Positions 7,561 to 38,202 of a stretch of DNA of 64,000 nucleotides are shown here, one piece after another. Numbering within the stretch: position 1 is the first letter of the stretch; every line of letters begins with the position of its first letter. The stretch is from a bacterium (GTDB taxonomy: Bacteria > Zhuqueibacterota > Zhuqueibacteria > Residuimicrobiales > Krinioviventaceae): NCBI GenBank assembly GCA_963674595.2, contig CAXXFV010000014.1, forward strand, positions 96,001-160,000. Reading direction: 5' to 3'. Both the position numbers and the translations under genes were made by a program. Below the pieces are notes generated by a model. The model did no database searches, was not told the DNA's origin, and saw nothing but the letters and a program-made list of their open reading frames with translations.

Positions 7561-7824
7561 AGCTTTGTTCCTTTCGGTTTTAAGAGAATACTAATAAGGT
7601 TATTTTCATAAATTATTCAAAATTTCAATACCAGTGCATTCATCAACATGGCAAAGTTCTTTTAAAAATATTCTGTTCTCACACGGTTGAAACTGGTTCC
7701 TGAAAAAATATGCTTCCGTTTTAATCTGTTTCATTTCAATAATCATAATAAATATATGCAAACAGATAGATGTTATCAAGTGTTTTTATATGAAAACAAG
7801 TATGAATGATATTTTCACAAGGAT

Positions 7825-8115: not shown

Positions 8116-8159
8116 ACAATTTCTTTTAGAATATTAGATGTTAAAAATTCACCCGGGTA

Positions 8160-10130: not shown

Positions 10131-10312
10131 ATTTTTTAACTCCTGAAAAATTCTTCCCTATTTTTTTTGGATTAATGTTAAAAAATTCTTACATTATATC
10201 AATTAAAGTATGTTAAGATTGGTAAAACTTGACATTTTAACAAATCAGAGATAGAGGGCATTTGCACTGCCGTTTCCTGATTTCTCTCCAATATTCAAAG
10301 TTATACACTTTT

Positions 10313-12052: not shown

Positions 12053-12096
12053 CTTAATCTTTGCCTATTAACCATTCCTGCCAAAAAATCACAACC

Positions 12097-21896: not shown

Positions 21897-21946
21897 ATTG
21901 AGGATACAATCTTCATCCAAATCACAAAAGCATCAAGCTTCTTATA

Positions 21947-23440
21947 TCAATCCTTTACCCATTCCCGTGACCGTTCAACGGCCTGATGCCACTTTTGTGT
22001 CATCTGTTTGACTTTATCTTTTTCCATTTCAGGTTTAAAGGATTTATCAACCTGCCACAACTTTTGAATATCAACGACATCTTTCCAATATCCGGTTGCA
22101 AGGCCGGCCAGATAGGCTGCTCCCAAAGCGGTAGTTTCAGCAATTTTAGGCCGTATAAGCGGAATTCCCAAAACATCGGATTGGAACTGCATCAGCATAT
22201 TATTAGCGGTTGCTCCCCCATCGACACGCAGTTCATTAATTTTAATTCCCGAATCGGCTTCCATGGCTTCAATCACGTCCAACGTTTGAAAAGCAATGGC
22301 TTCCAGCGCTGCACGGGCAATATGTCCGGCCGTGGTTCCCCGTGTCATTCCCACAATCGTACCCCGGGCAAACTGGTCCCAGTATGGCGCACCAAGTCCG
22401 GCAAAAGCAGGCACAAAATAAACGTCTCCATTGTCATCAACACTCCCGGCCAGTTTTTCAACATCTGCGGATGAAGAAATAATTCCCAGACCGTCCCGTA
22501 ACCACTGCACAACAGCGCCGGCAATAAAAATACTGCCTTCAAGAGCATAAACAGTTTCGCCATTTATTTGCCAGGCAATTGTAGTGAGCAAATTATTTTT
22601 AGATTTGATTGGTTTATTCCCGGTATTGACAACCAAAAACGAGCCTGTTCCATAGGTATTTTTTACCATTCCGGACTGCGTACACATTTGTCCAAAAAGT
22701 GCAGCCTGCTGGTCACCGGCCATACCGGCAACAGGAATAGATGCACTGAACAGAGGTCCTTTAGTTTGACCATATATTTCACTGCAAGAACAGACTTTTG
22801 GCAAAATGCTCGCAGGAATATCCAACAAATCAAGAATCTCCTGGTCCCACTCTAATGTATGAATATTGTACAAAAGCGTTCGGCTGGCATTGGTTACATC
22901 GGTAACATGTTTTTGCCCGCCGGTTAAATTCCACACAAGCCAACTGTCAACCGTGCCGAAAGCCAGCTTGCCCTGTTCAGCCAGGTCACGTGCTCCCTTA
23001 ACATTTTCTAGCAGCCATTTGACTTTGGTACCGGAAAAATACGCATCAATAAGCAAGCCTGTTTTCTTTTTAATCATTTCAGCATGACCTGCCGCTGCCA
23101 ATTCACGACAATACTCGGCGGTTCGTCTGTCCTGCCAAACAATGGCATTGTGAATGGGCTCACCGGTTTCCCGGTTCCACAAGATTGTTGTTTCACGCTG
23201 ATTGGTAATGCCGATGGCCTGAATATCATCAGCACATAAACCGGTATTTGACAAGGCCTCAACCGCCACTTGTGACTGGGTCTGCCAAATTTCCTGAGCA
23301 TTGTGTTCCACCCAGCCTGGTTTTGGAAATATTTGTTGAAACTCTTGCTGCGCTTTTCCCTTTATATTTCCCTGGTAATCAAAAATAATAGCTCTGGAAC
23401 TAGTCGTGCCCTGGTCAAGTGCTAAAATATATTTTGCCAT
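21947..23440 (-). CDS. glpK: Glycerol kinase
   Basis: [47 protein letters not shown]. Start at 23440 follows GGGAG. Confidence 0.97.
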
Positions 23441-23532
23441 CAACGTCTCCCATTTGCTCATAAAAAACCACAGTTACACATCATGTTATTAATAATAAAA
23501 ATATGATTTTTATAAGCAACAAAAATTTTATT

Positions 23533-23772
23533 CTATTTGTTCTTTTCCTTGAGGGTCCCCAGGCATTCTTCGGCATGTTTGCACCATTTAGCACAGCCGG
23601 TATCTATTTTTGGATTTCGCACATCTTTATGGCATTTAGGACAGGGCCGAACCGGTTCGTCCTTCCAAAACTCTATTTCTTCACCACAAAAAGGGCACAA
23701 AACATCATAAATATCTTCCGGTTTCCAGAACCTGAGGTCCTGTCCCGGACAGCGGTGCTTTTCCATAACCAC
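23533..23772 (-). CDS. Small Cys-rich (zinc-ribbon/Fe-S-like) protein
   Basis: CPGQD...CPFCGEEIEFWKDE..CPKC...GCAKWCKHAEEC; 8 Cys in 79 aa; coupled to the upstream gene. Confidence 0.75.
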   Translation of the reverse strand: MVMEKHRCPGQDLRFWKPEDIYDVLCPFCGEEIEFWKDEPVRPCPKCHKDVRNPKIDTGCAKWCKHAEECLGTLKEKNK

Positions 23773-23775
23773 CTC

Positions 23776-24372
23776 TTATAATAATCCCAAACAAACCCTT
23801 CCGGCCAAAACAGCCGCATCTTCGGTTGACAAGACATGTTTTATCGAGGCATCAAAAAGGAGTTCCGCGTCAGGCGGAAACTCTTCATCACCCAACCGGT
23901 ATAAAAGCGTTACATACAATTTGCCAAACACATGAATACGGGCGCCAAAATCGCCTACGTCAATCGGCTGCCAGTTATACCGGTTCAGATTTTTTTTTAA
24001 TAAATCGATATCATTACCAAATCGATTCACCATCGGGCGTATGGAACGCGCTAAAAACGGTTCATAATAAAAAATCCCGCCTGGAAGCTGTCTAAAGGAA
24101 ATCAATTCACTTGTTTCGTTTATTTTAAGGTCATTAAGTAGATAGTGCAACAGCAATATACGGTCACCCGGCTTGGCGGGCTCATTTTGTTCTCGAAACA
24201 ACTGAAAATCAGGCATGCGCAGGGTCATATCAGCGCCAAGGAATTTTAAGGAAAGGGTATTGTTTAAAGGTATCGGCAGTCCCAGACGGGAACATCTTTT
24301 ATTCAAATCAACATCTGCCAGTTTTTCTATCGCCAGTTTTACAGCCTCTTTATGTCCGTTTTCCTTAGACAT
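23776..24372 (-). CDS. DUF3786-family protein (commonly associated with acs/corrinoid clusters)
   Basis: ILLLHYL...ISFRQLPGG..Y..PF...GDEEFPP..LLFD...EDA. Confidence 0.8.
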   Translation of the reverse strand: MSKENGHKEAVKLAIEKLADVDLNKRCSRLGLPIPLNNTLSLKFLGADMTLRMPDFQLFREQNEPAKPGDRILLLHYLLNDLKINETSELISFRQLPGGIFYYEPFLARSIRPMVNRFGNDIDLLKKNLNRYNWQPIDVGDFGARIHVFGKLYVTLLYRLGDEEFPPDAELLFDASIKHVLSTEDAAVLAGRVCLGLL

Positions 24373-24481
24373 TAAAAGTCCGTTTTATATGATGAATAGA
24401 AAAAATCTGAAACGGAACTGTGTTATCCTTAATATTTTGATGCAACTCTTTAAACAAAAAAAAACTCACCTTTATTTCAAA

Positions 24482-26392
24482 TTATGGTTTCTTGTATAAT
24501 TTTTCAACAGACGGAAAAAATTTTAATTCGGTATGCGGTAAAAACAGGGCACCGGTATATTGGTTCATATATCCCGGGTCCGTACTCAATTCAATATAAG
24601 TCATTCGTCTTGCCAGGTCTGTTTGCCGTTGCCGGTAATCCTGAGACACCAGGACCATATATGCCCCCATTAAGGAAGAATTTCCAATATAATGATATTT
24701 TTCCCGAGGAACATCCGGCACGAGACCAAGGACAATTGCTTTTTCAATATCAAGAAAACGCCCAAATCCACCGGCGATATAAATATTGGCAACATCATCA
24801 AAACCAATTCCCACCTGTTCAAGCATTAAAGAACAGGCGGAATAGATAGCTGCTTTGGCCCGGATAATATTTTCAATATCCAGCTCACTGATTGTAATGT
24901 CCTTATCCAGACCACTTTTTTCTTTGGGTACAATAATATAACGGCTTATTCGGCCATCAGATATGATGACATCAGAGGAGCGGGAACGGTTTAATTTGCC
25001 GGCAGCATCAATCCATCCGGTCAGAAATAGATTAGCCAGTAAGGAAATCATCCCTGTTCCACAAATACCTTTTGGAGGCACATCACCGATGGTTTGATAT
25101 GAAGCAATACCGGTTTCCGGATCGACATCAACCCGCTCAATAGCTCCAATAGCAGCCCGCATACCATATTCTATCCCCCCTCCTTCAAAAGCAGGACCGG
25201 CTGAGCAGGCACAGGTCATTAAAAAATCGCGATTACCAACGACCAGTTCACCATTTGTACCGACATCAATAAAAAGATGAATATCCTCCGTGTTTGCGGC
25301 AATGTCCGTACAAAGTAATCCGGAGGTAATATCTCCGCCGACATAACTGCCGACGCTCGGAGATAAATATACCCAGGATTGAGGACTGATTTGCAGTCCG
25401 ACCTGTTCGGCTGTTAAATAGGGGGCTTCCAGGATGGTCGGTGTATAAGGTTCCAACCGGATATATTCCGGTTTCAGCCCCAACAACAAATGGACCATTG
25501 TTGTATTTCCGGCAATCACAGCGTTACAAACCTGAACAGGATTAACGTGATGCCCTTTGCAAACCTGAACAACAAGTTTGTTGATTGTTTTTAAAATCCG
25601 GGATCGCAGTTCAGCAAGCCGCTCCGGTTTTTGTGCATAATTAATACGACTGATAACATCCAAACCACAATGGATCTGGTCATTATACGCCGTTCGCGTT
25701 GCAATTGCTTTAGCTAATGGCAAAAATACGAGCTGAACAGCAACCGTTGTTGTTCCAATATCGATGGCAATACCATAATGCTGTGTAGATTCATCACCGG
25801 CTTCCAATTCGATAACATGATATCGGTCCGATTCACGAATCAGCGTTACCGTTACTTTACCATCCTGCTCGCGCAGTGTATCGGCAACCTTTTGAAGCAC
25901 GGGTAAAGGATATTGTACATGTTTTTTGCCCCAATCCGCCTGAATGGCCCGGGTCAATCGGTCCAGGTCCGACAAACCATCCTCATACTGGGGTTTTGGA
26001 ACATTCACGACCCATTTTAAAGCAAGCGGATCAAACTGCCAGTCGGCCGGCAGCAGGTCATGCCGGATAAGGCAGGTGTCATCTGTTTCATCAACAAATT
26101 TCCCAACCTGACTGCCGCTCTGTTCAAGAATTTCGACAACAATGTCAAAATTTAAAACTTTGGTTTTACAGGCAAGAACAAATCCTTCGGACATTGTCGA
26201 AGGTAATAAAACACCGAGACTGTCGGAATCTACATCGCCCTTTAAAATACGCACTATACATTTTCCGCAAGTGCCCTTTCCGCCGCACGGAAGATCAATA
26301 TCAATCTCTGCATATCGCGCGGCCATGATTAATGGCGTACCTTCAGCAACCTCAACAGTCTTTCCAAAAGGTTGAAATGTTACTCGCGGCAT
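24482..26392 (-). CDS. acsV: ATP-dependent reductive activator of corrinoid proteins (RACo/AcsV; 2Fe-2S + ASKHA)
   Basis: CGGKGTCGKC...LAC; DIGTTT; GNTTM; DVGTNGE; SAGPAFEGG; AGGFG. Confidence 0.9.
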   Translation of the reverse strand: MPRVTFQPFGKTVEVAEGTPLIMAARYAEIDIDLPCGGKGTCGKCIVRILKGDVDSDSLGVLLPSTMSEGFVLACKTKVLNFDIVVEILEQSGSQVGKFVDETDDTCLIRHDLLPADWQFDPLALKWVVNVPKPQYEDGLSDLDRLTRAIQADWGKKHVQYPLPVLQKVADTLREQDGKVTVTLIRESDRYHVIELEAGDESTQHYGIAIDIGTTTVAVQLVFLPLAKAIATRTAYNDQIHCGLDVISRINYAQKPERLAELRSRILKTINKLVVQVCKGHHVNPVQVCNAVIAGNTTMVHLLLGLKPEYIRLEPYTPTILEAPYLTAEQVGLQISPQSWVYLSPSVGSYVGGDITSGLLCTDIAANTEDIHLFIDVGTNGELVVGNRDFLMTCACSAGPAFEGGGIEYGMRAAIGAIERVDVDPETGIASYQTIGDVPPKGICGTGMISLLANLFLTGWIDAAGKLNRSRSSDVIISDGRISRYIIVPKEKSGLDKDITISELDIENIIRAKAAIYSACSLMLEQVGIGFDDVANIYIAGGFGRFLDIEKAIVLGLVPDVPREKYHYIGNSSLMGAYMVLVSQDYRQRQTDLARRMTYIELSTDPGYMNQYTGALFLPHTELKFFPSVEKLYKKP

Positions 26393-26417
26393 TTTATAAA
26401 CCTGCTTTCATAATAAT

Positions 26418-27755
26418 CTAGTTCAACCTTGTTTTAATATAACTTTCCAGATCAGCCGCCTCCTGGGGACCAACAAGAACCTTCCACCCGGACAGGCTTT
26501 CCTCGAGTTCACCACTGATTTGGGCAACATATCCGGGTATAATAATATCACGGCCTTTTACCAGCGAATCCAAATCTATTTCTTTGGCAAATTTCCCGAT
26601 ATACCCCCCGGAAAATTTACCGGCAGCCCAGGCCGTTAAAACACTCATGCCTTCGCATTCAGGCACCAGCAGCCAGGCACTGGTTCCGCTGTTTTCAATT
26701 TCTCCGGAAACAATAAAATAGGTCAATGAAAAATTAGTGGTGACAAAGACCGGAGATTCCGGGGTTGGTTCACCGACGGCATAGAGTTTGGGTTCAACCT
26801 GAATCGGTTTTTGCGGGTCCGTGTAAATATTGAGCCGCAACGTCATTAACGTAGCCAACTGTGCCGCATCAAAAGCGGGAAGCACACAAATTCCGCCATA
26901 TTTGCTGATTTCCGTAACAGCGAGCGCGGTCTCTTCATATAAATCATTCGTGTTTAAAACCGTCAAACTGGGGTAGCCCAAAGGTTTAAAATTATCTTTC
27001 AATGCCATACGACGTGCGATTGAATTGGTTTGAAAACGTTCGGCCAGAGAGCAAGTATTAAAATTAAGAATAAGGTTATTGAAACCACTTTCCTTAATTT
27101 CGCTCGTTAAAGAAACAAGCTCATTCAAATCCGGACCGGTAACAGCCAATGCATGTTCGTTTTTCTGAGCAGCGTCAACCAGTTCTTTGTAATTTTCTTT
27201 GGTTGCACAGGCGATAACACTGTGTGAGCCTTTAACAGCTTCTGCGGCGGCTACCAGCGCACTCGCACTAGCGCTGTTCAGCACCAGAGGACGTTTGACG
27301 GTTTCCCATGCTTTTTTTGCCACGGAAGCAAACTTTTCATTGTCTGTTCCCTTTTGGGTTACAGAAACCATATCGATGATCAATGTCTCTCCGACCCGTT
27401 CCAGAACGTAATCGGAAATTTGTTTTAGTGTTTTATCAATGGTGCCTTCATCATCCGTATCGTTTATATTAATCGCCAGCGCAGTTTGATTGACAAATGT
27501 TTTTTCATGGCGATATAAAACCGTTTCATCGCCAAGTTTTAATTTTTTATCCGGTCCCAGCTCAATAACTTTAACCGGCGGTTCACTGGCCGCACCCAAC
27601 ACTTGTTTTGCTTCATCGGAAGCATAGGGGCATTCTGATAAATCCGCTTTTTTTGCGGCAAGTTTCATTGCAAAAGCCAGACAAGTGTTGGAACCACATT
27701 CTTTACAATTGGTTTTGGGAAGCAATTTTTGAATTTGCAAACCTGTTAATGCCAT
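26418..27755 (-). CDS. acsC: Corrinoid iron-sulfur protein, large subunit
   Basis: LPKTNCKECGSNTCLAFAMKL..ECPY; LRLNIYTDPQKP; TTNFSLTYF; GMSVLTAWAAGKF. Confidence 0.95.
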   Translation of the reverse strand: MALTGLQIQKLLPKTNCKECGSNTCLAFAMKLAAKKADLSECPYASDEAKQVLGAASEPPVKVIELGPDKKLKLGDETVLYRHEKTFVNQTALAININDTDDEGTIDKTLKQISDYVLERVGETLIIDMVSVTQKGTDNEKFASVAKKAWETVKRPLVLNSASASALVAAAEAVKGSHSVIACATKENYKELVDAAQKNEHALAVTGPDLNELVSLTSEIKESGFNNLILNFNTCSLAERFQTNSIARRMALKDNFKPLGYPSLTVLNTNDLYEETALAVTEISKYGGICVLPAFDAAQLATLMTLRLNIYTDPQKPIQVEPKLYAVGEPTPESPVFVTTNFSLTYFIVSGEIENSGTSAWLLVPECEGMSVLTAWAAGKFSGGYIGKFAKEIDLDSLVKGRDIIIPGYVAQISGELEESLSGWKVLVGPQEAADLESYIKTRLN

Positions 27756-27771
27756 TTTGAATATTCCTCCG

Positions 27772-30700
27772 TTATTGGTTCTTCTTGTCCATTAATTTTG
27801 CAATAGTACGTTTAACAGCTTTAACAGCGTCCGGGTTATACATGATCATAATATCCGCACCTGCATACAATAGATTTATAGCCGTAGCGGTTTCCCACAT
27901 GGCGGCACGTTTTGCCAGTTCTCCCCAGGCAGGAAAATCAGATTCCGGCGCTTTAACTTCTTTAATTTTGGCACACTCCTGGCCGGGTGCAACGATCATC
28001 GGGCCTGCCAGCATTTTATCGCCATTTAATCCTGTGAGACGGATTCTTTCGATAACAGAGTAGGTGTATTCAATCCCATACCCGGCGGCACCGGTCATGG
28101 GGTCCATGATAATCTGTTCCGGTTTTATGTCCATATTTGTCAGGAGAATATTCATCTGCTTGGCGATGTTGACATCAATCGGACTCTGGGATACAAGTGA
28201 ATGTCCATAGGCCATAGCGGCACCGGCAATTGTTCGGTAATTATCCTGTTCTACCCAGTTTAACAAGAGATTTTCACCGGCACATGCCTGGGCGACGGCT
28301 TTAAGCACTTCATTATTTCGGTCAAAATTACTGTGACCGGTAATGATCAACGGAACATCGACAGCCGCTAGTACCTCTTTAACCACCTGCACAGCCTGCT
28401 CCGGGGTTCTGTTTCCTTTTTCAGGATGGGTTCCTTCAAGCCGAACACTGATCAAATCAGCGCCGAATTTTTCCACACAAAGTTTCGCCATTTCCGCAGG
28501 ATTTTTCAACGTGTCACCATAGTAACCGGCCAAAACAGGCGGGAATTTTTCACTGACCAGATCAAAAACTTCCATAGCAACAAGAGGAGCATTAGGCATT
28601 TCACCTTCCCATAAATGAAAAGGCATACAGGTCTGTCCGCCTACCTGATATGTTTTTCCGCGTGTACCGCCTTCTGCTTTAGTCGCTCCAAGTTTTACCT
28701 TCCAAACAGGTACTTCACAACTTTCTTTGGGAACAGTAAAAGCGGTTACAGCACTTAGACGCTCTTTAGCGGTCGGACCGGCAGGCAGTTCCGGTTCTTT
28801 GACAATTTCTACCTTTTCTTCCGATTTTACAGGTTCCTTAAAAGTAATCGATCTTTCTTCTCCGAGAAATTTTTCGCCAAGAGTTGAAATAATTTCCCGT
28901 ACAATTTCCTTAGCCATAACGGATTTGAGTTCATCAGAAACTTCTTTTTTCAACTCTTGTTTTAATTGAGCCAATTGTTCGGGTGTCATGGGTTCATCCT
29001 CTTTTTCAGAAACATCTTTTGTTTCCGTAATTATTATTGATTCGACAGGTTCCTTTTTATCCGTTTCAACAGGTGATTCTGATGAAGAAATTTGCGACAA
29101 GTCTGACATTGTTAATGCCGGATGGTTCACTTTTTCCATATACTGTCTGACAGCATCAGCTTCAGTAGAAATAGTTTCGTCGGCAATTTTTTCCATCAGA
29201 TCCGCTGCATCCTGTTCCTGAAATCGCTTTTGCAGATCATCAGCCAGTAGATCTTTTAACTCTTTTGTCATCCAGACAAGACGTTTATGCCCGCCTTCTG
29301 CAAAAAGGAATTTTTTCGAAGTTAAAAAGACCTTTCCGCATCCCATAAAACCGGGTGTCTGCTGGCCGCCGCCGACACTTCCGGCTAAAGACGAAAAAGT
29401 CATTCCAACCGGGGTGTTGCCCTGATACTCGCGATTAACAGCCATAATTCCATTACATTCCGGGATGTAAGCACAAATAACTTCAAAACATCCACAGCTT
29501 GTCATTGGCCGGTCCATAATGGAATAGGCACAAAAACTGGACACGGATTTATGGCTGTTGGTGTAGACATATTCGTCAACACCTTTCCAAATACCTTTTA
29601 CAGGGTCAACTAAATCACCTTTTTTAACCGGCTGATTGGGACCGGTTTCGTCGATTTCAAAAGCGGCTTTACCGTCAAGCCAGTTATAGGCGCCGCAAAG
29701 TCCGAGTCGTTCCGGGGTAATAATACATACATGGTCCGGGGCAAAAGATTGACACAACAAACAGGAATAAAAAGTATCTACAGAATCATCCGTCATGGCT
29801 TCCAACCGGCGGTTGCGTTCATCATAAACCTTACGGGCAATAGCAATACGTTCTTCAACAACTTTTTGGTCGGTAATCAATGTGACCTTAACTTTATCAA
29901 CAATGGCCGGGTAATCGGATAAAAACTTGGCGTGAATAATTTCGCCATAATCTTTCAGTCGCACGCCTTTTGCAAAAGCATCTCTGGAAACACGCGTCCA
30001 GACAATATCCCGCTGTCCCATGTGCCAGATACCTTCCGCACCATTGACAAGATGGTGAATTTGGCGTTCGAGGATCGGTTCAAAATCAGACTGCATTTTG
30101 CGGCCCGCCACCTGGACCCAAATGCCCAGGGGAAGCACTGTTCCCGGTTCTATGGTATCAATATCCGGACCGATAATATCGATTTCGCCGTCATTAATTT
30201 CATCCAGTTCTACCGAGGTTACAAATTCAAAAGCCTGTGATTTATTACCACCAAATTCAGCGTGGACATCGTTTTTGCGAATTCTTTCGCCTTCAAACGC
30301 CGGGCCGTATGAAACAGGAATCGGTACTTTGGTAATTTTAATTTTGCATCCGCGAACTTCAAGCGCCTTTTCCACAATGATATCATGAGGGACCTGCGAA
30401 ACGACATGTTCATAAGTACATACACCTGTCGGTAAAATTTGCGGTATATCCGTATCTGCAATAACCGGGAAACCATAATTAATGGCCCCTGCTGCGAGAG
30501 CATATTTATCAGGAGTTACCGTACCGAAAGCCAGAACAAAGGCAAAAATTCTGTTTTTATTATATTTTAAATTTTTCTCAAAATCACCGGGTTTAACACC
30601 GCCAAAAGAAAGGGCGGCCCGGTTAGCAAATCCAAGTGCATAAATTAATGCGGAAACATCATTACCAAAAGGTACAAGCCGTGTTTCCCATCCAAGCTGA

Positions 30701-31272
30701 ATTCCCTCTTCAGCCAATTGTTTGGAAAAATGGTTTCCGTTTAGCCCGCCTCCCATAAAAACATACAGATTTTTTTCCTGCAATTCTCTGGCTATTTTAA
30801 CGGCAATTTCATTTGTCGGCGCTGCTCCGGTAATAGCGGCAAATCCGGGCGCTGTTCCATCGACAAATTCGATGCCTCTTTCACGCATAATCAAATCGCT
30901 TGCGGCACCCAGCCAAATATCATCAACCGGATGCGGACCGGTAATATACTTGCAGGCTTCAATAATTTCACAGGCAAACAAAGCCGCAACACCGGCATCC
31001 AGGGTACTTCCTAAATATGGCAGCCAGACTTTTTCAGATGGTCGTTCCGGCAATAGCTCTTTTGCACGTTTTAATATATCTCTCAGGTCCGCCAATGTTT
31101 CTGCTTTTTTACCGATAAATGAATAAATGACCGGCAAAAAATAAGCTGTATCCGGGAACCCGACTGCCTGGGATTCTCCTTTTATCTTAATCGCCTCATC
31201 AAGTTTCGATTCAGCGCGAGCAACCCATTCTACAGCACCGTCAATGGCGCTGCTGCATATCAGTTTAGACAT
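27772..31272 (-). CDS. acsB: Fusion of acetyl-CoA synthase (AcsB) and corrinoid Fe-S protein small subunit (AcsD)
   Basis: A-cluster motifs SCLLCQSFAPDHVC, LGLCGA and MTSCGCFE. After a charged linker come AcsD motifs LGATKAEGGTR, SPIDVNIAKQ and GYGIEYTYSVIERIRL. One uninterrupted 1166-aa ORF. Confidence 0.92.
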   Translation of the reverse strand: MSKLICSSAIDGAVEWVARAESKLDEAIKIKGESQAVGFPDTAYFLPVIYSFIGKKAETLADLRDILKRAKELLPERPSEKVWLPYLGSTLDAGVAALFACEIIEACKYITGPHPVDDIWLGAASDLIMRERGIEFVDGTAPGFAAITGAAPTNEIAVKIARELQEKNLYVFMGGGLNGNHFSKQLAEEGIQLGWETRLVPFGNDVSALIYALGFANRAALSFGGVKPGDFEKNLKYNKNRIFAFVLAFGTVTPDKYALAAGAINYGFPVIADTDIPQILPTGVCTYEHVVSQVPHDIIVEKALEVRGCKIKITKVPIPVSYGPAFEGERIRKNDVHAEFGGNKSQAFEFVTSVELDEINDGEIDIIGPDIDTIEPGTVLPLGIWVQVAGRKMQSDFEPILERQIHHLVNGAEGIWHMGQRDIVWTRVSRDAFAKGVRLKDYGEIIHAKFLSDYPAIVDKVKVTLITDQKVVEERIAIARKVYDERNRRLEAMTDDSVDTFYSCLLCQSFAPDHVCIITPERLGLCGAYNWLDGKAAFEIDETGPNQPVKKGDLVDPVKGIWKGVDEYVYTNSHKSVSSFCAYSIMDRPMTSCGCFEVICAYIPECNGIMAVNREYQGNTPVGMTFSSLAGSVGGGQQTPGFMGCGKVFLTSKKFLFAEGGHKRLVWMTKELKDLLADDLQKRFQEQDAADLMEKIADETISTEADAVRQYMEKVNHPALTMSDLSQISSSESPVETDKKEPVESIIITETKDVSEKEDEPMTPEQLAQLKQELKKEVSDELKSVMAKEIVREIISTLGEKFLGEERSITFKEPVKSEEKVEIVKEPELPAGPTAKERLSAVTAFTVPKESCEVPVWKVKLGATKAEGGTRGKTYQVGGQTCMPFHLWEGEMPNAPLVAMEVFDLVSEKFPPVLAGYYGDTLKNPAEMAKLCVEKFGADLISVRLEGTHPEKGNRTPEQAVQVVKEVLAAVDVPLIITGHSNFDRNNEVLKAVAQACAGENLLLNWVEQDNYRTIAGAAMAYGHSLVSQSPIDVNIAKQMNILLTNMDIKPEQIIMDPMTGAAGYGIEYTYSVIERIRLTGLNGDKMLAGPMIVAPGQECAKIKEVKAPESDFPAWGELAKRAAMWETATAINLLYAGADIMIMYNPDAVKAVKRTIAKLMDKKNQ

Positions 31273-33214
31273 CCAGTTCTCTCCTATCTTTCATATCATA
31301 CAGCTTGCGTTCCATCTTTTTGTTGATGCCCAGTTTTTCTCTGGCATTGTCAAGTAAGGTCATTATTTTATCAAAGGCAGCATCTGCTTCTTCACAAACA
31401 TGGAATGATCCGCCAAACAAATCTTTAGCATCTTGGTGTAAAAATTTGTCAACATTTTCCGATCCGGAAACATAAAAGGGATGCCCTAAAATAACGTCCA
31501 CACCGGAGGCGACAAAATAACAACCAATGGAAATTGCCTTTTCGCTCATCCATTCCGGAGCGACACCCACGGCCGGAATTAAGGAAAGATCATCTCCCAA
31601 ACCGCCTTCAAGAACAATTTCCGTACCCGCTTCCAGAATTCTTGAATTATCAACGCAGCTCCCCATATGCAGGACAGGCGGAATTCCGACGGCTTCACAA
31701 ACTTCACGCAATCCGCTACCAGCCTGTTCCAACGCCGTTTCAGGGGTCAATCTCCCCTGTTTTGCCGAAGCAATAGCAGCACAACCGGTTTTAAGGACCA
31801 GTACATTTTCTTTAATCAGTTTTTGAGTCAGAGTGTTAATGTAATCGTCCAGTTTTTCTTTCGGATTGTTACAACCGACAATTCCAACAACACCCTTTAT
31901 TCGGCCCTGAATAATAGCATCATTCAAAGGTCTAAAAGAGGCGCGGTAGCTGCCGCCCAGCATATATTTGATCGCATCAACACTAAATCCGGCAATAAGC
32001 GGTTTTGTTTCGGATGGTATGGCAACCTTTTTGGAATCACGATTTTTATAATTATCAATAGCGCGTTTTATCAGTTCTTTTGCGGATGATAATGCATCAT
32101 CTTCGTCAAAAACGTGATGGAACGCACCGGCGGTTTTGGCAATGGCCGATGTTGAAACAATTTGCGTATGATAAGCAGCGGCAACTTCCGGCAGACTGGG
32201 CATACAACATTGCACATCGATTACCATAACTTCAACAGCACCGGTAATAACAGCAAGCTCCTGCTGTAGAAAATTTCCGGCAACCGGAATACCATGCCGC
32301 ATCAATATTTCATTGGCGGTACAGCATATACCGGCCAGGGTTATACCTTTTGCACCGGCTTTTTTAGCATAATCCACAATATCCGGCGCACAGACAGCAA
32401 CAGCCAGCATTTCGGACAATTCCGGTTCGTGGCCGTGCACCACAATATTAACAGTATCTTCTTTTAAAACACCAAGGTTTGACTGGCTTTTAACCGGGGC
32501 CGGTGTTCCAAAAAGGATATCGGAAGCCATGGTGGCAATTCGTGAACCGCCCCATCCGTCAGCTAAAGAAGTGCGAAAAGCCTGGCGTAATATGCTCTGG
32601 TAGTCGTGATCAACACCCATGTGTGTACGGTGCATGGATTCGACAGCCATTCGGTCGATTCCCTGAGGAGCAACATCCTGATTTTTCCAAATACTTGACT
32701 GTTTTTCCGGCGCCAGGTTAAGAGTTTTTAACAGTTCTTCCTGTGATGTGAATTCCTGCAAAAATATATTGGCCAAATCAAGCGCAATTTCTGAATCACT
32801 GCGGTCGTCGGTTTCTATTTGATAGGCTTTGGCCGCTCTGTACAAGGCTTTTTTATCCTTAATTTCATAGCCGTTACCGTTTCCTTCGGCAACTTTTTTC
32901 AGGCGTAAAACAAGATGACGGCCATGGTCGGAATGGGCAGCGGCGCCGCCGACAACCTGACGTAAAAAATTTCGGGCAACGATTGTATCTGCATTGGCTC
33001 CACAGATACCGAGGGGCGACCTTGGTGTAATTCGGCAGGGTCCCATGTGACAAATTCGGCAGCAAACACCGGTCGTACCGAATTTGCAGGAATTTCGCTG
33101 AGTTTCAACCCGGGTAAAACAGGTTTCAATACAGTCGGTAGCAGCTTTTAATAACATTTCACTTGAGGCAGCATCGGAAACGCGTTCCTCAATTTTAATT
33201 GGTTCCTTTGGCAT
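31265..33214 (-). CDS. cooS: Anaerobic Ni-Fe carbon-monoxide dehydrogenase catalytic subunit
   Basis: CKFGTTGVCCRICHMGPC; AAHSDHGRH; HGHEP; GICCTANE; VGCNN; TGCA; GSCVDNSR; PEWMSEKA. Confidence 0.95.
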   Translation of the reverse strand: MPKEPIKIEERVSDAASSEMLLKAATDCIETCFTRVETQRNSCKFGTTGVCCRICHMGPCRITPRSPLGICGANADTIVARNFLRQVVGGAAAHSDHGRHLVLRLKKVAEGNGNGYEIKDKKALYRAAKAYQIETDDRSDSEIALDLANIFLQEFTSQEELLKTLNLAPEKQSSIWKNQDVAPQGIDRMAVESMHRTHMGVDHDYQSILRQAFRTSLADGWGGSRIATMASDILFGTPAPVKSQSNLGVLKEDTVNIVVHGHEPELSEMLAVAVCAPDIVDYAKKAGAKGITLAGICCTANEILMRHGIPVAGNFLQQELAVITGAVEVMVIDVQCCMPSLPEVAAAYHTQIVSTSAIAKTAGAFHHVFDEDDALSSAKELIKRAIDNYKNRDSKKVAIPSETKPLIAGFSVDAIKYMLGGSYRASFRPLNDAIIQGRIKGVVGIVGCNNPKEKLDDYINTLTQKLIKENVLVLKTGCAAIASAKQGRLTPETALEQAGSGLREVCEAVGIPPVLHMGSCVDNSRILEAGTEIVLEGGLGDDLSLIPAVGVAPEWMSEKAISIGCYFVASGVDVILGHPFYVSGSENVDKFLHQDAKDLFGGSFHVCEEADAAFDKIMTLLDNAREKLGINKKMERKLYDMKDRRELDV

Positions 33215-33290
33215 ATAGATTATTCTCCCATTGTTCAGGTGGAAAGCCGCAAGGTATATTTTTATATTCTATTTCTGTTTTCGATTATTT

Positions 33291-34052
33291 TCAAATTCCA
33301 ATATCCGCAATCATTTTTTTCAAAATTACTACAACGTCATTATTGTCAGGTAATGAAATAAAACTTTTTCCGTCTTCAGCATAATCAGCCAATTCAGAAT
33401 TTTCCGGCAGGGCAACAATAAAATCAGCATTGGTGATATTTTGTAAATCATTAATAAAACGTGGTTCTCTATCACTCCTCAACCGGTTGATAATAATAGC
33501 GAGCTTGTCGTATTCAACACCCATTTCATGGGTCAAATCAAACAAACGTTTTATCGTATCGACTCCCCTGGCAGACGGATCTGTAACCATCACCATCAAA
33601 TTCACTTTTTGCACAATACGTCTGGATAAATTTTCCAAACCAGCCTCATTGTCCAACACAACATAAGGATAGTTTGATGCAATTTCACCCAGCGCTGCTT
33701 TTAACACATTATTGGCATAACAATAACAACCCGGTCCTTCGGGGCGCCCCATGGTTATCAGATCAAAATCATCAGCCTCAACCAGGCTTTCGGATATTTT
33801 CAATTCCAGCAACTGCTGTTTGGAAATTCCGCTGGCCATTCCTTTACCGGCAATTTGCCGGGCTTCTTCACGGACTCCGCCAATTGTCACATCAGTATGG
33901 ACACCAAGTGCGGCATCCAGACAATTATTGGGATCAGCATCAACAGCAAGGACAGGTCTTTTATTGTTTCGTATCAACTGGGTCACCAATAAAGCAGCAC
34001 AGGTTGTTTTTCCCACACCACCTTTACCGGTAACGGCTATAATATAACTCAT
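33291..34052 (-). CDS. cooC: CooC/AcsF-type nickel-insertion ATPase
   Basis: GKGGVGKTT; VDADP; GPGCYCYAN; DNEAGLENLSRR. Confidence 0.9.
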   Translation of the reverse strand: MSYIIAVTGKGGVGKTTCAALLVTQLIRNNKRPVLAVDADPNNCLDAALGVHTDVTIGGVREEARQIAGKGMASGISKQQLLELKISESLVEADDFDLITMGRPEGPGCYCYANNVLKAALGEIASNYPYVVLDNEAGLENLSRRIVQKVNLMVMVTDPSARGVDTIKRLFDLTHEMGVEYDKLAIIINRLRSDREPRFINDLQNITNADFIVALPENSELADYAEDGKSFISLPDNNDVVVILKKMIADIGI

Positions 34053-34130
34053 TCTTCTCTTTTATTTTAAAATCAAAACATCAAAATTTATATAAAGGAC
34101 TATCTTGCTATCCTTTATAACACATAAAAA

Positions 34131-34904
34131 TTAATTTGTTAATATTTTTTCATAAAGTTCCTGAAAAACAGATTGCATTTCAGCATCGACATACTCTAAC
34201 GCAGACAATCCATCCCGGTCAGCTTTACGGATAGATTCAGAATAGGGTATAAAACCAAGGAATTCATGATTCGGCAGTGATTCTATAAGATAGTTTTTAT
34301 CTTCCTCGCTGGTTACTTTATTGGCAACAAAGCGGATATTTTTCAGGCCGATTTCCTGCGCCATACGCTGTACACGGAAAGCGCTGTCGATTGAACGTTT
34401 TCCCGGTTCAACCACAACAATCATGGTATCCACTCCGCGGGCTGTTGCCCGTCCCAAATGTTCAACACCAGCCTCCATGTCCAGCACCAGCGCGTCGTCT
34501 TTAAACAAAACAAGGTCGGTGACAAGCGCACGTAACAACACACTTTCAGGACAAGCGCATCCGCTTCCCCCCTGTTCAATAGCGCCGAGTACGAGCAAAG
34601 CAATTCCGTTATGCATGGTGGCATAGTTTTCAGCAATATCCGAAACTTCCGGATTTATCTTAAACATCTGCCCATACTGCTTTACTTTGGCGCCGGTCCG
34701 CTCTTCTATTAAGGCAATCTGCTCAGAGATAGGAATAATTTCTTTTTGTTTCTCTTCGGGAATTCCAAGAGCGGCGGCAAGGTTCGCATCCGGGTCTGCA
34801 TCAACAGCTAACACCCGTTTACCTTGTTTGGCCATCATAAGCGTTAAAGCGGCGGCAAGAGTAGACTTGCCGACACCGCCTTTACCGGAAATAGCAATTT
34901 TCAT
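34131..34904 (-). CDS. cooC: CooC nickel-insertion ATPase
   Basis: GKGGVGKST; GSGCACPE; DMEAGVEHLGR. Confidence 0.9.
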   Translation of the reverse strand: MKIAISGKGGVGKSTLAAALTLMMAKQGKRVLAVDADPDANLAAALGIPEEKQKEIIPISEQIALIEERTGAKVKQYGQMFKINPEVSDIAENYATMHNGIALLVLGAIEQGGSGCACPESVLLRALVTDLVLFKDDALVLDMEAGVEHLGRATARGVDTMIVVVEPGKRSIDSAFRVQRMAQEIGLKNIRFVANKVTSEEDKNYLIESLPNHEFLGFIPYSESIRKADRDGLSALEYVDAEMQSVFQELYEKILTN

Positions 34905-34916
34905 AATATCTTTCGT

Positions 34917-36005
34917 TTAAAAACCGTATTTTTGTTTCATGGCAGCAGACAATTGCTGCGTCATCTCAAATACCTTTTCAGCATCATCCGGTTCCATTGA
35001 TCCGGTACCGCAGGATGGTGTTACAAGGGCCTGCTCAATAATAAGCTGTTTATCAATACCCTTGGAAGCCAGGTGATCTATCATTTTTTCAAAATGATTG
35101 ACCATACTATCCAAAGTTTGTTCGCGGATGGCTGTAGAAGTCGGCACAACACCCCAGGCCAGGGCTCCGCCCCGTTCCAGGTGGGCTTTAACGGAATCTG
35201 CGTACATGGCAATGGTTTCGCCGTATTCAAAGGCATCAAAATTAACAATATCAACACCGGCATCGATCAGGATGCTCCATTCCGTATTACCGCAACAGTG
35301 AATAGCAGCCAACGCATTATCAGCGTGAACAGCTTCAATAACCTCAGCTAAATGGGCGACAACATCTTCCCGTTTTACGGAAACATAGGTAGAGCTGCCG
35401 AAAGCAGAAAGTATCGGTTCGTCTATGAAACAGATAATTTTTTCAGCAAAAGGTTGGAATTTCTGGATCTGCCAGCGGCATTTCATAGCCAGTGCTTTAA
35501 TCACAACATCACGAAACTCTTCATTATAATAGATAGCCCGTTTATTTTCGTCAACAATCGTCAAAGCAAAACTACAGGGGCCGGTTGTTTGTACTTTAAC
35601 AAATGGTAATTTTGTTCCCATTGATTGCAGTTTTTGCTCCAAAGCATAAACACCTTTGGAAAATTCATTACTGATCTGCATGGCAGAACAATCACCTGTC
35701 CCGTCATCAGGGTCCATGGCAAGCATATAAGCTTCGTAAAACTCGGCAAAAGCTTCGGAATAATCGCCGGAGGTATCGAAAAACATACGACCTTTTTCAC
35801 GGTCAATCTGAGCACAGGGCAATCCTTCGGAATATTGAATTTCCATTTGTTCATTCAAACCCAATTTGGGAAGCTGCGGCCAAAAAGGAGCCTGTGTTAA
35901 CTTGGAAACCGAAACATCGACGGCATGGTTAATATCTGTAAACGGCATACTGCCGATTCCGGTTGCTAAAAATTTTGGTTTAAAGGACATAACAGAATTC
36001 TCCAC
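34917..36005 (-). CDS. Core (folate-independent, MesB-like) methionine synthase, MetE C-terminal barrel only
   Basis: ATGIGSMP, FWPQLP, KVQTTGP, FIDEP; Zn-ligand-like HCCG...NFDA...TPSCG; 362 aa with no N-terminal MetE barrel. Confidence 0.75.
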   Translation of the reverse strand: MENSVMSFKPKFLATGIGSMPFTDINHAVDVSVSKLTQAPFWPQLPKLGLNEQMEIQYSEGLPCAQIDREKGRMFFDTSGDYSEAFAEFYEAYMLAMDPDDGTGDCSAMQISNEFSKGVYALEQKLQSMGTKLPFVKVQTTGPCSFALTIVDENKRAIYYNEEFRDVVIKALAMKCRWQIQKFQPFAEKIICFIDEPILSAFGSSTYVSVKREDVVAHLAEVIEAVHADNALAAIHCCGNTEWSILIDAGVDIVNFDAFEYGETIAMYADSVKAHLERGGALAWGVVPTSTAIREQTLDSMVNHFEKMIDHLASKGIDKQLIIEQALVTPSCGTGSMEPDDAEKVFEMTQQLSAAMKQKYGF

Positions 36006-36025
36006 ATTATTTTTGTATAAAAATA

Positions 36026-36916
36026 TTAAACATTATTAACGGCATCTTTAATTGCTCTGATATGAGCAGGTGTTGTTCCACAGCAGCCGCCAATAATTTT
36101 GGCACCGGCTTTAATAATTGCAGGTGTTAAAGCTGCCATTTGTTCAGGGCTGTCAGGGAAAACATCTTTTCCGCCTATATTTTGCGGTAAACCGGCATTT
36201 GCGTGAACAAGAATGGGAATGTCACCGATAACTGTTTTCATTTCAGTAACAATATCAATCATTCGTTCCAATCCGTTTCCACAGTTTGTACCAATAATAT
36301 GTGCGCCGGCTTCAATGGCGGCTTTAGCCGCATCTATTGGTGCAACACCCATCATTGACCGATATTCACCGGATACTGTTTTTTCAAGCGTAAACGTGCA
36401 AATAACTTCACAGTTTGTATTTTCACGCGCCGCACGGATGGCTAAACAGGCTTCATCAATGGCACTCATCGTTTCCACACAAATAGCATCTGCGCCGCCT
36501 TCTTCCAGGGCTATAACCTGCTCCTTAAAAGCGTTATACAAATCGTCTTCCGTTACATCACCCATAACCAGCATTTTACCGGTAGGGCCGACAGATGCAA
36601 TAACCCAGTTTACCTCACCAGCCGCTTTTCTGGAAATTTCAGCAGCAGCACGATTCAGTTCACTAACCCGGTCTGCTAATCCATAGTGTTCAAGTTTATA
36701 ACTTGTGCCGCCAAAACTGTTTGTTTCAATCATGTCACTACCGGCTGCTATATAACTTTTGGCAATATCCAATACATCATCCGGTCTGTCAATACACCAT
36801 AACTCGGGGCAATCACCCGGCTGCAAACCTTTGGCTTGAAGAAATGTACCCCATGCACCATCAGATATAAGAATTCTCCCCTCATTAATTGCGTCTACAA
36901 TTCGACCTCTGGTCAT
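36026..36916 (-). CDS. Stand-alone homocysteine S-methyltransferase domain (MetH N-terminal-like)
   Basis: SDGAWGT, ETNSFG, SVGPTG, GTNCGNG, ANAGLP, IIGGCCGTTP. Start at 36916 follows GGAGGAG. Confidence 0.9.
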   Translation of the reverse strand: MTRGRIVDAINEGRILISDGAWGTFLQAKGLQPGDCPELWCIDRPDDVLDIAKSYIAAGSDMIETNSFGGTSYKLEHYGLADRVSELNRAAAEISRKAAGEVNWVIASVGPTGKMLVMGDVTEDDLYNAFKEQVIALEEGGADAICVETMSAIDEACLAIRAARENTNCEVICTFTLEKTVSGEYRSMMGVAPIDAAKAAIEAGAHIIGTNCGNGLERMIDIVTEMKTVIGDIPILVHANAGLPQNIGGKDVFPDSPEQMAALTPAIIKAGAKIIGGCCGTTPAHIRAIKDAVNNV

Positions 36917-36944
36917 TTTAATCTCCTCCAATTTAGAATTCATG

Positions 36945-37994
36945 TTATGTATTTCGTATAACAAGTTCCGGCTGCAAAACATGCTGATTAAGAGTTATAT
37001 CATCTCCTTTTAAATGTCGATGAATAATTTCTGATGACAATGCAGCCATTTCACTGTAATGCGGATCAATTGATGTAATAGCAGGGGTAAAAAAACGGGC
37101 CACATCCGTATTCCCATAACTAACGAGTGAAATCTGGTCCTGCATTTTAAAACCCCATTCACCGAGTCTTCCTACGAGACGAACGGCGTCTATGTCATCA
37201 CAACAAAAAATACCTGATATCTGTTTTTCCTGAATAAACTCTTTGGTAACCAAACTTATATCTTTAATAAAATGACATTCGCGATTGTTGCCGTCCCGTT
37301 GAATAAAATTTTTAAAAGTCTCCTGCATAACTTCCTGAATCATATTTCTGCCAAGCCAGATATTATTTTTAATATAGGCAAGAGCCTTATTTGTTCCTTC
37401 CAATAAATATTGTACGGCACGACGGACACCCAAATCATAACTTTGAATCACATAGGGGAAATAAGAACCCACCATTGTATGATTTAAAAGAGTTACCAAT
37501 GTTTTACCGGTTTGCAGCCGTTTATAAAATAATGCGGTTTTGGATTCGTCAAAGGTGGGTACCATAATAACCGCTTCATATCGCGAATTAATCAAGGTAC
37601 CCACCAGACGAATTTCCTCCTCGTAATTGTTATAGTCTATAAATATTTCAACCTGACGACCAAGGGAATCGGCTTTTTGCCGTAAATAATGAATTAACTG
37701 TTCAGTCTGTGAAGAGAAAAATGGGACGATAACACCCCATATCTTTTTACAGGGGCCAAGATCAGCAATAAATGATCCCATACCGGGTTTTTGAACAATA
37801 AAACCTTCATCAGATAAAATTTTCAATACGGTTTTTGCCGTTTCTCGGGAAACTTTATGTTTGCTTTGAATTTCGTTAATGGAATCAATACGTGTTCCGG
37901 GAGGGATTTTCTGTGTCAGGATGGTGTTTTTATACTGCTCTACCAATTTCTGGTAGATAGGGACAAATTGAGATTTTTCGTTATCCCTTTTCAT
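36945..37994 (-). CDS. GntR-HTH / LacI-type effector-domain transcriptional regulator
   Basis: VSRETA..L.DEGFI...GMGSF HTH; C-terminal GIFCCDD..ISLVSYGN..PAITSID..PELVIR. Confidence 0.88.
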   Translation of the reverse strand: MKRDNEKSQFVPIYQKLVEQYKNTILTQKIPPGTRIDSINEIQSKHKVSRETAKTVLKILSDEGFIVQKPGMGSFIADLGPCKKIWGVIVPFFSSQTEQLIHYLRQKADSLGRQVEIFIDYNNYEEEIRLVGTLINSRYEAVIMVPTFDESKTALFYKRLQTGKTLVTLLNHTMVGSYFPYVIQSYDLGVRRAVQYLLEGTNKALAYIKNNIWLGRNMIQEVMQETFKNFIQRDGNNRECHFIKDISLVTKEFIQEKQISGIFCCDDIDAVRLVGRLGEWGFKMQDQISLVSYGNTDVARFFTPAITSIDPHYSEMAALSSEIIHRHLKGDDITLNQHVLQPELVIRNT

Positions 37995-38002
37995 AGTTGA
38001 AT

Positions 38003-38031
38003 ATAATAATAAATGAAAAACAAAAAAGCAA
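38003..38031 (-). promoter_or_regulatory. Putative sigma70 promoter giving a near-leaderless transcript
   Basis: TTGCTT-17 bp-TATTAT ends 8 nt before the ATG at 37994; no SD sequence. Confidence 0.45.
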
Positions 38032-38202
38032 GAAATAATCACATCACATCACATTAAATACAACCTTTCTATATGTTTGACTAATCACCCCGATAATAAT
38101 AATACCTACCTTTTTTAACATATTGAACTCGACAGCTTGCTTAATAAAAGTCAATTCCATAAATTTGGCTATAAAAAAATGTTATTTTAATACGGAATTG
38201 CC

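Follow-up and report, generated by a model that had tools for sequence, protein, structure and literature searches.

A CODH/ACS gene module without AcsE that may pass methyl groups from its corrinoid protein to homocysteine

INTRODUCTION

Through which enzyme does a methyl group enter or leave a system of carbon monoxide dehydrogenase and acetyl-CoA synthase (CODH/ACS) that has no AcsE? The question is raised by an operon at positions 23533 to 38042 of a 64,000-nucleotide (nt) stretch of DNA, hereafter the window, from a bacterium of the phylum Zhuqueibacterota. The window is G000:C14:96001-160000 in our numbering of its genome, which comprises 6.6 Mb in 37 contigs and is 97.6% complete with 5.1% contamination (assembly GCA_963674595.2). 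The classical acetogen operon runs acsA-acsB-acsC-acsD-acsE, with cooC and acsV. The operon in the window resembles it in encoding CooS/AcsA, AcsB, AcsC, AcsD, CooC, and RACo of the bacterial type, but it has no AcsE, its AcsD is fused to AcsB, and genes for predicted thiol methyltransferases stand at its head. We call the MetE-like one of these genes mesL and the stand-alone PF02574 gene hcyMT.

An earlier note on this DNA had read the operon as a folate-independent module that moves methyl groups between acetyl-CoA and sulfur compounds. Here, we put a probability of about 0.5 on one form of this reading, in which MesL and HcyMT would be a folate-independent methyl port from the methylated corrinoid iron-sulfur protein (CFeSP, also written CoFeSP) to homocysteine. 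The underlying idea has already been published, as direct methyl transfer from CoFeSP through MesB to homocysteine is proposed in the available portions of two papers (Deobald 2020, PMC7005905; Price 2021, PMC7857596). The present module differs from what was published by the presence of CooS, the AcsB-AcsD fusion, the PF02574 partner, a separate clade, a folate route alongside, and a spread over phyla. A literature search, which mostly did not extend to subscription journals, found no description of the module, of the AcsB-AcsD fusion, or of DUF3786 in this context.

RESULTS

Gene content of the operon

Eleven genes are packed on the minus strand, with intergenic gaps of -8 to 109 nt in the list of open reading frames (ORFs). 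Their places and identities agreed with those given in the earlier note, and Pfam and NCBIfam models identified all of them except mesL, which had no Pfam match. In the predicted order of transcription, the genes are as follows.

36945-38042, minus strand, regulator with a GntR-type helix-turn-helix domain (PF00392) and a LacI-type sugar-binding domain (Peripla_BP_3, PF13377), by Pfam
36026-36916, minus strand, hcyMT, homocysteine S-methyltransferase of about 296 aa that resembles MetH module 3 and MtgE (PF02574, 237 bits)
34917-35990, minus strand, mesL, predicted MesB-like zinc methyltransferase of the core-MetE fold, 357 aa, by fold and motifs
34131-34904, minus strand, first CooC/AcsF-type nickel-insertion ATPase (CbiA/ParA-type P-loop Pfam matches; conserved beside mesL)
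33291-34052, minus strand, second CooC/AcsF-type nickel-insertion ATPase (CbiA/AAA_31 Pfam matches; conserved position)
31265-33214, minus strand, CooS/AcsA, catalytic subunit of the Ni-CO dehydrogenase (TIGR01702, 633 bits, cut-off 478; PF03063)
27772-31272, minus strand, AcsB-AcsD fusion of acetyl-CoA synthase and CFeSP small subunit, 1166 aa in one frame, by NCBIfam
26418-27755, minus strand, AcsC, CFeSP large subunit with Fe-S domain, TIM barrel, and corrinoid domain (NF003195, 518 bits; PF03599, PF04060)
24482-26392, minus strand, RACo/AcsV corrinoid reductive activase (NF040756, 699 bits, below the cut-off of 800; Pfam Fer2, RACo_linker, Raco_middle, and RACo_C_ter)
23776-24372, minus strand, DUF3786 protein (PF12654, 143 bits)
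23533-23772, minus strand, Cys-rich zinc-ribbon protein of 79 aa, accessory (weak zinc-ribbon matches only)

The ORF of mesL was listed as 34917-36005 (362 aa); judged from the sequence, its true start is ATG 35990, which follows a GGAG motif and gives 357 aa, the length of its relatives. Similarly, hcyMT probably starts at 36916 (296 aa) rather than at the listed ORF end of 36982. In the fusion protein, the AcsB part matched NF040764 (1047 bits, residues 10-725) and the AcsD part matched NF003376 (387 bits, residues 845-1161). By the Pfam and NCBIfam matches, the carbonyl-branch set of CODH/ACS is complete in the operon, with CooS/AcsA, AcsB, AcsC, AcsD, nickel maturases, and RACo. The window holds no acsE, metF, folD, or fhs, as the earlier note had observed, and all matches of the genome to these families lie on other contigs. 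A promoter and terminator scan of positions 21500-38600 was uninformative, with counts no higher than those of shuffles (41 vs 39.2 and 20 vs 17.6). A run search listed 21 runs, and none of those that hold this DNA is recorded as RNA.

Conservation of the module in other genomes

In a pattern scan that covered each species by one genome, 441 stretches were found to encode a mesL relative, and the synteny counts given here refer to the best 80 of them (70 to 84% identical), in which the genes were read by tblastn with the proteins of the window. mesL lay beside cooC in 78 of the 80 loci. The order mesL-cooC-cooC-cooS-acsB-acsD-acsC-raco held as far as each locus extended, with the order cooC-mesL-cooC instead in three loci. 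One of the two exceptions is a locus that stops just past mesL, and the other is a Sumerlaeota locus with diverged acs genes on the opposite strand. Such an arrangement is far beyond chance. mesL is thus a fixed part of the module in other genomes, which upholds the link between methyltransferase and acs genes drawn in the earlier note. The titles of the best 80 loci name KSB1, Omnitrophota, Bacillota/Clostridia, Fibrobacterota/Chitinivibrionales, Bacteroidota, Acidobacteriota/Aminicenantes, Lentisphaerota, Zhuqueibacterota, Spirochaetota, Syntrophales, Ignavibacteriota, Planctomycetota, Verrucomicrobiota/Kiritimatiellales, and Sumerlaeota.

In 45 of the 47 loci where both parts were visible, AcsB and AcsD were joined in a single stop-free frame. 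For 68 loci, 1.3 kb or more of upstream DNA was available; hcyMT was located directly upstream of mesL in 45 of them, and the upstream genes of the remaining loci were mutually unrelated or on the other strand. An ortholog of the regulator (56 to 64% identity) occupied the same place in 6 of the 80 loci, labelled KSB1, 'Cytophagia', or unclassified bacterium, and was confirmed by Pfam in two of them (L021 and L022). DUF3786 followed RACo in two of three other genomes whose downstream DNA was examined; in a Bacillota locus (L050), it was directly upstream of hcyMT. Copies of the zinc-ribbon gene (62 to 68% identity) were present elsewhere near the module in 6 of the 80 loci, at varying positions, and the gene was absent downstream of the module in three genomes checked.

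Further genes were observed upstream of hcyMT in some loci. In three loci assigned to Verrucomicrobia/Verrucomicrobiota or Pontiellaceae, a second RACo-like activase with no ferredoxin-domain match (L073 6858-8558, L087 6811-8529, and L093 6886-8577) and an ORF of 77 to 84 aa precede hcyMT, and RACo is also present at the end of the module. In a Bacillota metagenome-assembled genome (MAG), a gene for formate-tetrahydrofolate (THF) ligase (FTHFS; L045 6200-7885) is found on the strand of hcyMT, two genes upstream of it, which places the module beside a folate-branch gene.

In the phylum of the window, represented by 167 genomes including its own, mesL relatives were present in 20 genomes and AcsB in 19, of which 16 also had a mesL relative. 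The four mesL-positive genomes without AcsB had short contigs or a relative of 31% identity. The window's family is represented by 18 other genomes, and neither mesL nor AcsB was detected in any of them; it seems that the module either reached this lineage by transfer or was lost from its relatives. Because the module is spread patchily and is highly identical across phyla, these sequence comparisons point to horizontal transfer of the whole module. The operon has a GC content of 0.431, compared with 0.381 in the rest of the window; its third-position GC overlaps that of other genes, and base composition is weak evidence of recent transfer.

HgcA, the corrinoid protein of mercury methylation (NF040863), exceeded the cut-off in 20 of 51 module-carrying genomes but not in the genome of the window. 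Within the phylum, it was present in 6 of 20 mesL-positive genomes and 22 of 147 others. A functional link between the module and HgcA was not supported beyond shared lineages, and the co-occurrence may reflect shared lineages and habitats.

Fold, motifs, and family placement of MesL

A word-indexed search collected 5722 members of the MesL family at E <= 0.001, and the best 120 of these, the window's own entry aside, were 77 to 85% identical to MesL and mostly unnamed or 'hypothetical'. An exhaustive search grouped the relatives in 2079 clusters at 50% identity, of which 437 had E <= 1e-30. The only NCBIfam match of MesL was to NF002119 (archaeal methionine synthase), whose cut-off is 258 bits, with a score of 34 bits. 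The AlphaFold (AF2) model built on the family alignment reached a predicted local distance difference test score (pLDDT) of 95.7 and a predicted template modeling score (pTM) of 0.93. Foldseek matched this model to the C-terminal barrels of MetE (3l7r, E 1.6e-7), UroD, the MtaA-like 4ay8, and 3RPD (E 1e-7 to 1e-6), with query TM-scores of 0.5 to 0.6 and identities of 9 to 15%; MesL is about equally far from all of them. According to the model, MesL is a single MetE-type barrel with no N-terminal folate barrel.

Among 36 diverse relatives of 29 to 62% identity to the query, H236, D257, and C332 of MesL were invariant, and S19, D195-E196-P197, and C238 were conserved in at least 90%. The zinc ligands modelled in the core-MetE of Dehalococcoides (CBDB1) are His215, Cys217, Asp236, and Cys312 in the available text of Deobald 2020 (PMC7005905). 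H236, C238, D257, and C332 of MesL have offsets of +2, +19, and +75, compared with +2, +19, and +76 in CBDB1, and the zinc pattern has Asp where MetE has Glu, as in the Dehalococcoides protein. The pattern of H-x-C, D at +19, and C within 60 to 95 residues recurred in 134 of 150 cluster representatives, and another three, which are fragments, retain H-x-C and D but stop short of the last Cys. The homocysteine-binding Ser and Asp of MetE motifs were assigned in Price 2021 (PMC7857596, available part), with S433 and D599 in E. coli MetE. By mapping through motifs, S19 (IGS) and D195 (DEP) of MesL align with GS(Y/F)P and IDE(A/P) of core MetE and 3RPD. Taken together, the MesB-type spacing of the zinc ligands and the MetE/UroD fold agree with the core MetE-like assignment in the earlier note.

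The genome encodes a second core MetE of 341 aa on another contig (G000:C15, L012:1408-2433, plus strand; PF01717, 62 bits), which adjoins an unrelated 402-aa ORF and whose closest solved relative is 3RPD, a B12-independent synthase (E 2.5e-14). When the MesL profile was compared with this protein by hhalign, the probability was only 1.4%, yet the alignment was full-length with the motifs in register (IGS with GSYP, IDEP with IDEA, H-C-C with H-L-C, and PSCG with PDCG). The second core MetE in turn aligns with 3RPD.

Ten distant relatives of MesL that NCBI names methionine synthase scored 216 to 300 bits by phmmer, with 34 to 41% identity over the full length; none of the NCBIfam models covers them. 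The available part of Price 2021 (PMC7857596) sets a phmmer score of 130 bits or more against the D. mccartyi protein as the rule for MesB, and Dehalococcoides was named in no row of the second homology search for distant MesL relatives. A FastTree phylogeny of 166 family members was rooted on the genome's own core MetE. In this tree, the 17 module-linked sequences formed one clade with local support of 90, within a 22-row clade with support of 100. The mean depth of the module-linked clade was 0.32, compared with a median terminal branch of 0.71, indicating short branches, and the NCBI-named proteins lie elsewhere. We place MesL in the MesB-like family, as a distinct subclade that is apparently under strong constraint.

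Sequence features of HcyMT

HcyMT matched PF02574 over profile positions 1-283 of 283 and carries GTNCG and GGCCG motifs, which we take to be the Zn-Cys triad of MetH. Both methyltransferases of the operon keep zinc and substrate motifs. HcyMT is 36% identical to the PF02574 domains of YitJ and MetH of the same genome and 62 to 78% identical to the module copies in other phyla, which indicates that it travels with the module.

In its domain makeup, HcyMT is like the homocysteine-binding subunit of a split methionine synthase, which was reportedly described by Price in 2018. Stand-alone PF02574 subunits of this kind (MtgE; PGA1_c13370) take the methyl group from a separate corrinoid protein, according to the available part of PMC12478193. 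Unlike MtgE, HcyMT has no adjoining small corrinoid protein or pterin module, and CFeSP is the only corrinoid protein of the operon. It is also paired with a second enzyme of unrelated fold for which the same reaction is predicted.

Methyl and folate genes elsewhere in the genome

AcsE was not found genome-wide; its model NF005719 matched only the pterin domain of MetH (175 bits, cut-off 259) and FolP (25 bits), which were also the only matches to the pterin-binding family PF00809. The folP gene adjoins a cdaA-like gene. FTHFS (Fhs) was also not found in the genome, whereas FolD is encoded on contig C16 and the sole MTHFR occupies the C-terminal half of a 614-aa protein, fused to a second PF02574 domain. 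The methyl branch is therefore incomplete. In the assembly, metH (G000:C18, L004) consists of two overlapping frames of 219 and 925 aa. In two public runs, taken from separate studies (X1 and X3, of which X1 may be the source sample of the assembly), the single long contig over the gene lacks two letters at about position 6551; without these two bases, metH is a single frame of 1138 codons. A pseudogene is therefore rejected, metH is most likely intact, and the split probably reflects a polymorphism or a mistake in the assembly.

With FolD, the MTHFR fusion, and a full MetH, folate-dependent methionine synthesis is available in this genome. The absence of acsE and fhs noted earlier thus extends to the whole genome, and the absence of metF and folD does not, since the MTHFR fusion and FolD are on other contigs. 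The analogy that had been drawn with Dehalococcoides, which has no MetF, MetH, or CODH, fails at the same point: the genome has the MTHFR fusion, a full MetH, and CooS, and the presence of MetH, MTHFR, and FolD indicates that the organism is not Dehalococcoides-like in depending on the route through the module.

Three other observations concern this set of genes. A second folD-like stretch (G000:C23:762820-763362) lies in four frame pieces, one with two TAA stops, and looks decayed. A stand-alone corrinoid protein of the MtgC/MtbC type (210 aa; G000:C6, L013:1234-1866, plus strand) matched NF047996 at 225 bits, below the cut-off; it is flanked by genes for phosphoribosyl pyrophosphate synthetase and a GHMP-type kinase, with no methyltransferase gene adjoining, and could be a partner of HcyMT. 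In the window, 5 kb from the operon, a 339-aa protein of the URO-D family (43089-44108, plus strand) scored higher with the models of MtaA/CmuA (132 bits) and methylcobalamin:coenzyme M methyltransferase (121 bits), both below cut-off, than with HemE (79 bits). By these scores, the protein may be a further methyltransferase that depends on a corrinoid.

AcsE and the folate branch in module carriers

The carrier set comprised the genomes of 50 of the 80 loci, with longer DNA favoured; these are MAGs of unstated completeness. The AcsE model exceeded its cut-off in three of the 50 genomes. Some Bacillota carriers had stand-alone ORFs of 260 to 281 aa that scored 224 to 251 bits with the AcsE model, below the cut-off, and these ORFs adjoin a PF02574-MTHFR fusion in all four that were cross-checked. 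FTHFS was present in 34 of the 50 carriers, MTHFR in 44, and a MetH-like ORF (pterin domain in an ORF of at least 800 aa) in at least 26. Within the phylum, none of the 15 close-clade carriers matched the AcsE model at E <= 1e-55. One genome (G084) has an unfused 752-aa AcsB and, 6 kb off on the same contig, a 271-aa AcsE-type ORF (265 bits, with one TAA inside the match); its only mesL relative is 41% identical and on another contig. Thus, the module is typically AcsE-less and coexists with MetH and MTHFR.

Other features of the window

Large secreted proteins that carry the sorting domains FlgD_ig and Por_Secre_tail (type IX secretion) form a run at positions 905-17601; one of them is a 1834-aa GLUG-repeat/M26-like protein. 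The run is interrupted by an rve-type integrase gene (5280-6086), and its GC content swings between 0.35 and 0.50.

DISCUSSION

In the reading that we prefer, AcsB would make or split acetyl-CoA, and the methyl group would ride on the corrinoid of AcsC, whose partner AcsD is predicted to be covalently fused to AcsB. CooS would interconvert CO and CO2, the two CooC proteins would insert nickel, and RACo would re-reduce cobalt. The methyl port would be the zinc-thiolate methyltransferase MesL, of the MesB/core-MetE kind, and not AcsE with methyl-THF; HcyMT, of the MetH-module-3 type, would be a second enzyme beside it in most versions of the module. The reaction would convert CH3-Co(III)-CFeSP and homocysteine to methionine and Co(I), with the substrate, the partner, and the direction being those that we infer. 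CooS would burn the CO derived from acetyl-CoA to CO2 and thereby reduce ferredoxin, so that acetyl-CoA and homocysteine would in sum yield methionine, CO2, CoA, and reduced ferredoxin. The direction from acetyl-CoA to methionine is suggested by thermodynamics, as a methyl-corrinoid gives its methyl group to a thiolate in a strongly favourable step.

Several lines of evidence are counted for this proposal: the MetE-type barrel, the zinc spacing, the Ser and Asp motifs, the similarity to proteins named methionine synthase by NCBI, and the triad of HcyMT all suggest a homocysteine methyltransferase, and the synteny of mesL with cooC, the AcsB-AcsD fusion, the scarcity of AcsE, and the mesL relatives in 16 of the 19 AcsB genomes of the phylum suggest its link to CFeSP. 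The closest known system is the MesB/core-MetE of Dehalococcoides mccartyi (cbdbA481 = DET0516), which is likewise a single MetE-type barrel of about 340 to 360 aa with His-x-Cys, Asp (not Glu), and Cys zinc ligands at the same spacing; in both cases, AcsC/AcsD co-occur and the genome is without AcsE. MesB occurs by its published criterion only with AcsC/AcsD, and mesL shares their operon here and lies beside genes of the acs module in 78 of 80 loci. Unlike the D. mccartyi gene, mesL heads a full CODH/ACS operon including CooS, it belongs to a separate, very tight clade left 'hypothetical' by NCBI, and MetH, MTHFR, and FolD are present in its genome. Dehalococcoides is described in the available text of Deobald 2020 (PMC7005905) as having no CODH and as carrying its core-MetE gene with genes of the S-adenosylmethionine (SAM) cycle. 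In some methanogens, mesB is in an apparent operon with acsCD (Price 2021, Fig 3B, PMC7857596, available part). The operon in the window is similar in joining a core methionine synthase gene to the genes for the two CFeSP subunits, but it is bacterial, has the AcsB-AcsD fusion, CooS, two CooC, RACo, DUF3786, and often a PF02574 partner, and is spread over many phyla.

A number of results weigh against this proposal. MesL had no Pfam match even at E <= 10, PF01717 (Meth_synt_2) included, and its comparison with PDB sequences, both as a single sequence and as a profile, gave nothing meaningful. The likeness to MesB comes from residue positions published for the characterised protein. With MetH, the MTHFR fusion, and FolD, the organism does not need the route through the module, and most carriers have MTHFR and at least 26 of the 50 a MetH-like ORF. 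MesB-like proteins beside other methionine synthases may have another function, as stated in the available part of Price 2021 (PMC7857596). No SAM, T-box, or cobalamin riboswitch was detected by Rfam in the window or in eight Bacillota loci, where the sole match, in the Bacillota loci, was a tRNA. MesL is 70 to 84% conserved compared with 61 to 87% for AcsB, which speaks against a purely biosynthetic role, and two adjacent enzymes predicted for one reaction remain unexplained. A complex prediction for AcsC (residues 60-445) and MesL scored 0.00 without controls and is no evidence either way. As for the folate-independent module proposed in the earlier note, the lack of AcsE and FTHFS and the fixed place of mesL in the acs module speak for it, but a folate route to methionine exists elsewhere in the genome.

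The same conservation figures would fit a central role better than a side role, which favours a flow in the opposite direction. MesL, HcyMT, or both would then load CFeSP from S-methyl donors such as methionine, S-methylmethionine, methanethiol/dimethyl sulfide, or methylmercaptopropionate, and ACS would join the methyl group to CO made from CO2 by CooS, so that fermenters would gain an electron sink and acetyl-CoA without the folate branch. The full CODH with two maturases accords with this direction, since methyl supply of the Dehalococcoides type does without them (Deobald 2020, PMC7005905, available text), as do the prevalence among the carriers of anaerobic heterotroph lineages that already have MetH and MTHFR and the lack of methionine-type riboswitches in the window and the eight Bacillota loci. 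MtsA of Methanosarcina, a zinc enzyme of the MetE/UroD superfamily, uses thioethers as methyl donors to a corrinoid, which also counts for such a flow. Against it, the step from a thioether to Co(I) runs uphill for the methyl group, and methionine synthases count as irreversible in practice. In addition, the kept residues that align with the homocysteine-binding Ser and Asp of MetE point to homocysteine/methionine and not to small thiols, and no methyl-sulfur transporter or lyase is conserved beside the module, whose upstream genes vary by locus. We consider this direction unlikely.

Equally doubtful to us is an ordinary carbonyl branch in which CFeSP would take the methyl group of methyl-THF without AcsE, either with its own TIM barrels or with the aid of an unrecognised enzyme, while the two methyltransferases would merely share the operon or serve another corrinoid protein such as the orphan MtgC-like one. 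A precedent exists, as archaeal CoFeSP performs pterin methyl transfer alone (preprint PMC13370988, available part). The AcsD part is also close to the archaeal model, with 240 bits on cdhD (cut-off 253) compared with 262 on bacterial WLP_AcsD (cut-off 430). Moreover, MTHFR and FTHFS are common in the carriers (44 and 34 of 50, respectively), the genome has the stand-alone corrinoid protein at L013:1234-1866, and hcyMT is missing from 23 of 68 modules. However, mesL is the most constant gene of the module, was lost in no locus fetched through it, and has a relative in 16 of the 19 ACS genomes of the phylum. The genome is without FTHFS, so a full methyl branch from CO2 is unavailable here; AcsB, with its N-terminal domain, is of the bacterial type; and pterin binding by these barrels is unsupported. 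It is far less probable still that MesL itself is a methyl-THF:CFeSP methyltransferase, a non-homologous replacement of AcsE. MesL does hold the methyl-port role in AcsE-less modules, and MetE enzymes bind methyl-folate; but the single 357-aa barrel lacks the N-terminal barrel to which MetE owes its folate site, and its conserved zinc-thiol site has no role in transfer from folate to cobalt. Characterised core-MetE used methylcobalamin and not methyl-THF in the available parts of Deobald 2020 (PMC7005905) and Price 2021 (PMC7857596).

A wider and speculative view, which we hold to be improbable, is that the module is a mobile variant of CODH/ACS in which homocysteine/methionine replaces THF as the methyl carrier, working near equilibrium and in both directions. 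If so, anaerobic heterotrophs would make the methyl groups of methionine from acetyl-CoA, and under excess reductant they would combine S-methyl groups with CO2-derived CO to acetyl-CoA, a folate-free acetogenic electron sink. Such a sink would be missed by pathway surveys, which look for AcsE and the methyl branch.

For testing in vitro, the module provides six or seven proteins as a defined set. Genome surveys of the Wood-Ljungdahl pathway score the folate branch and AcsE, so that carriers of the module would be called 'incomplete' or overlooked. Should methyl groups pass directly between the corrinoid protein and homocysteine, the module would be the first operon-level case for CoFeSP-to-MesB transfer, in testable organisms, and the route would be used even where a folate route exists.

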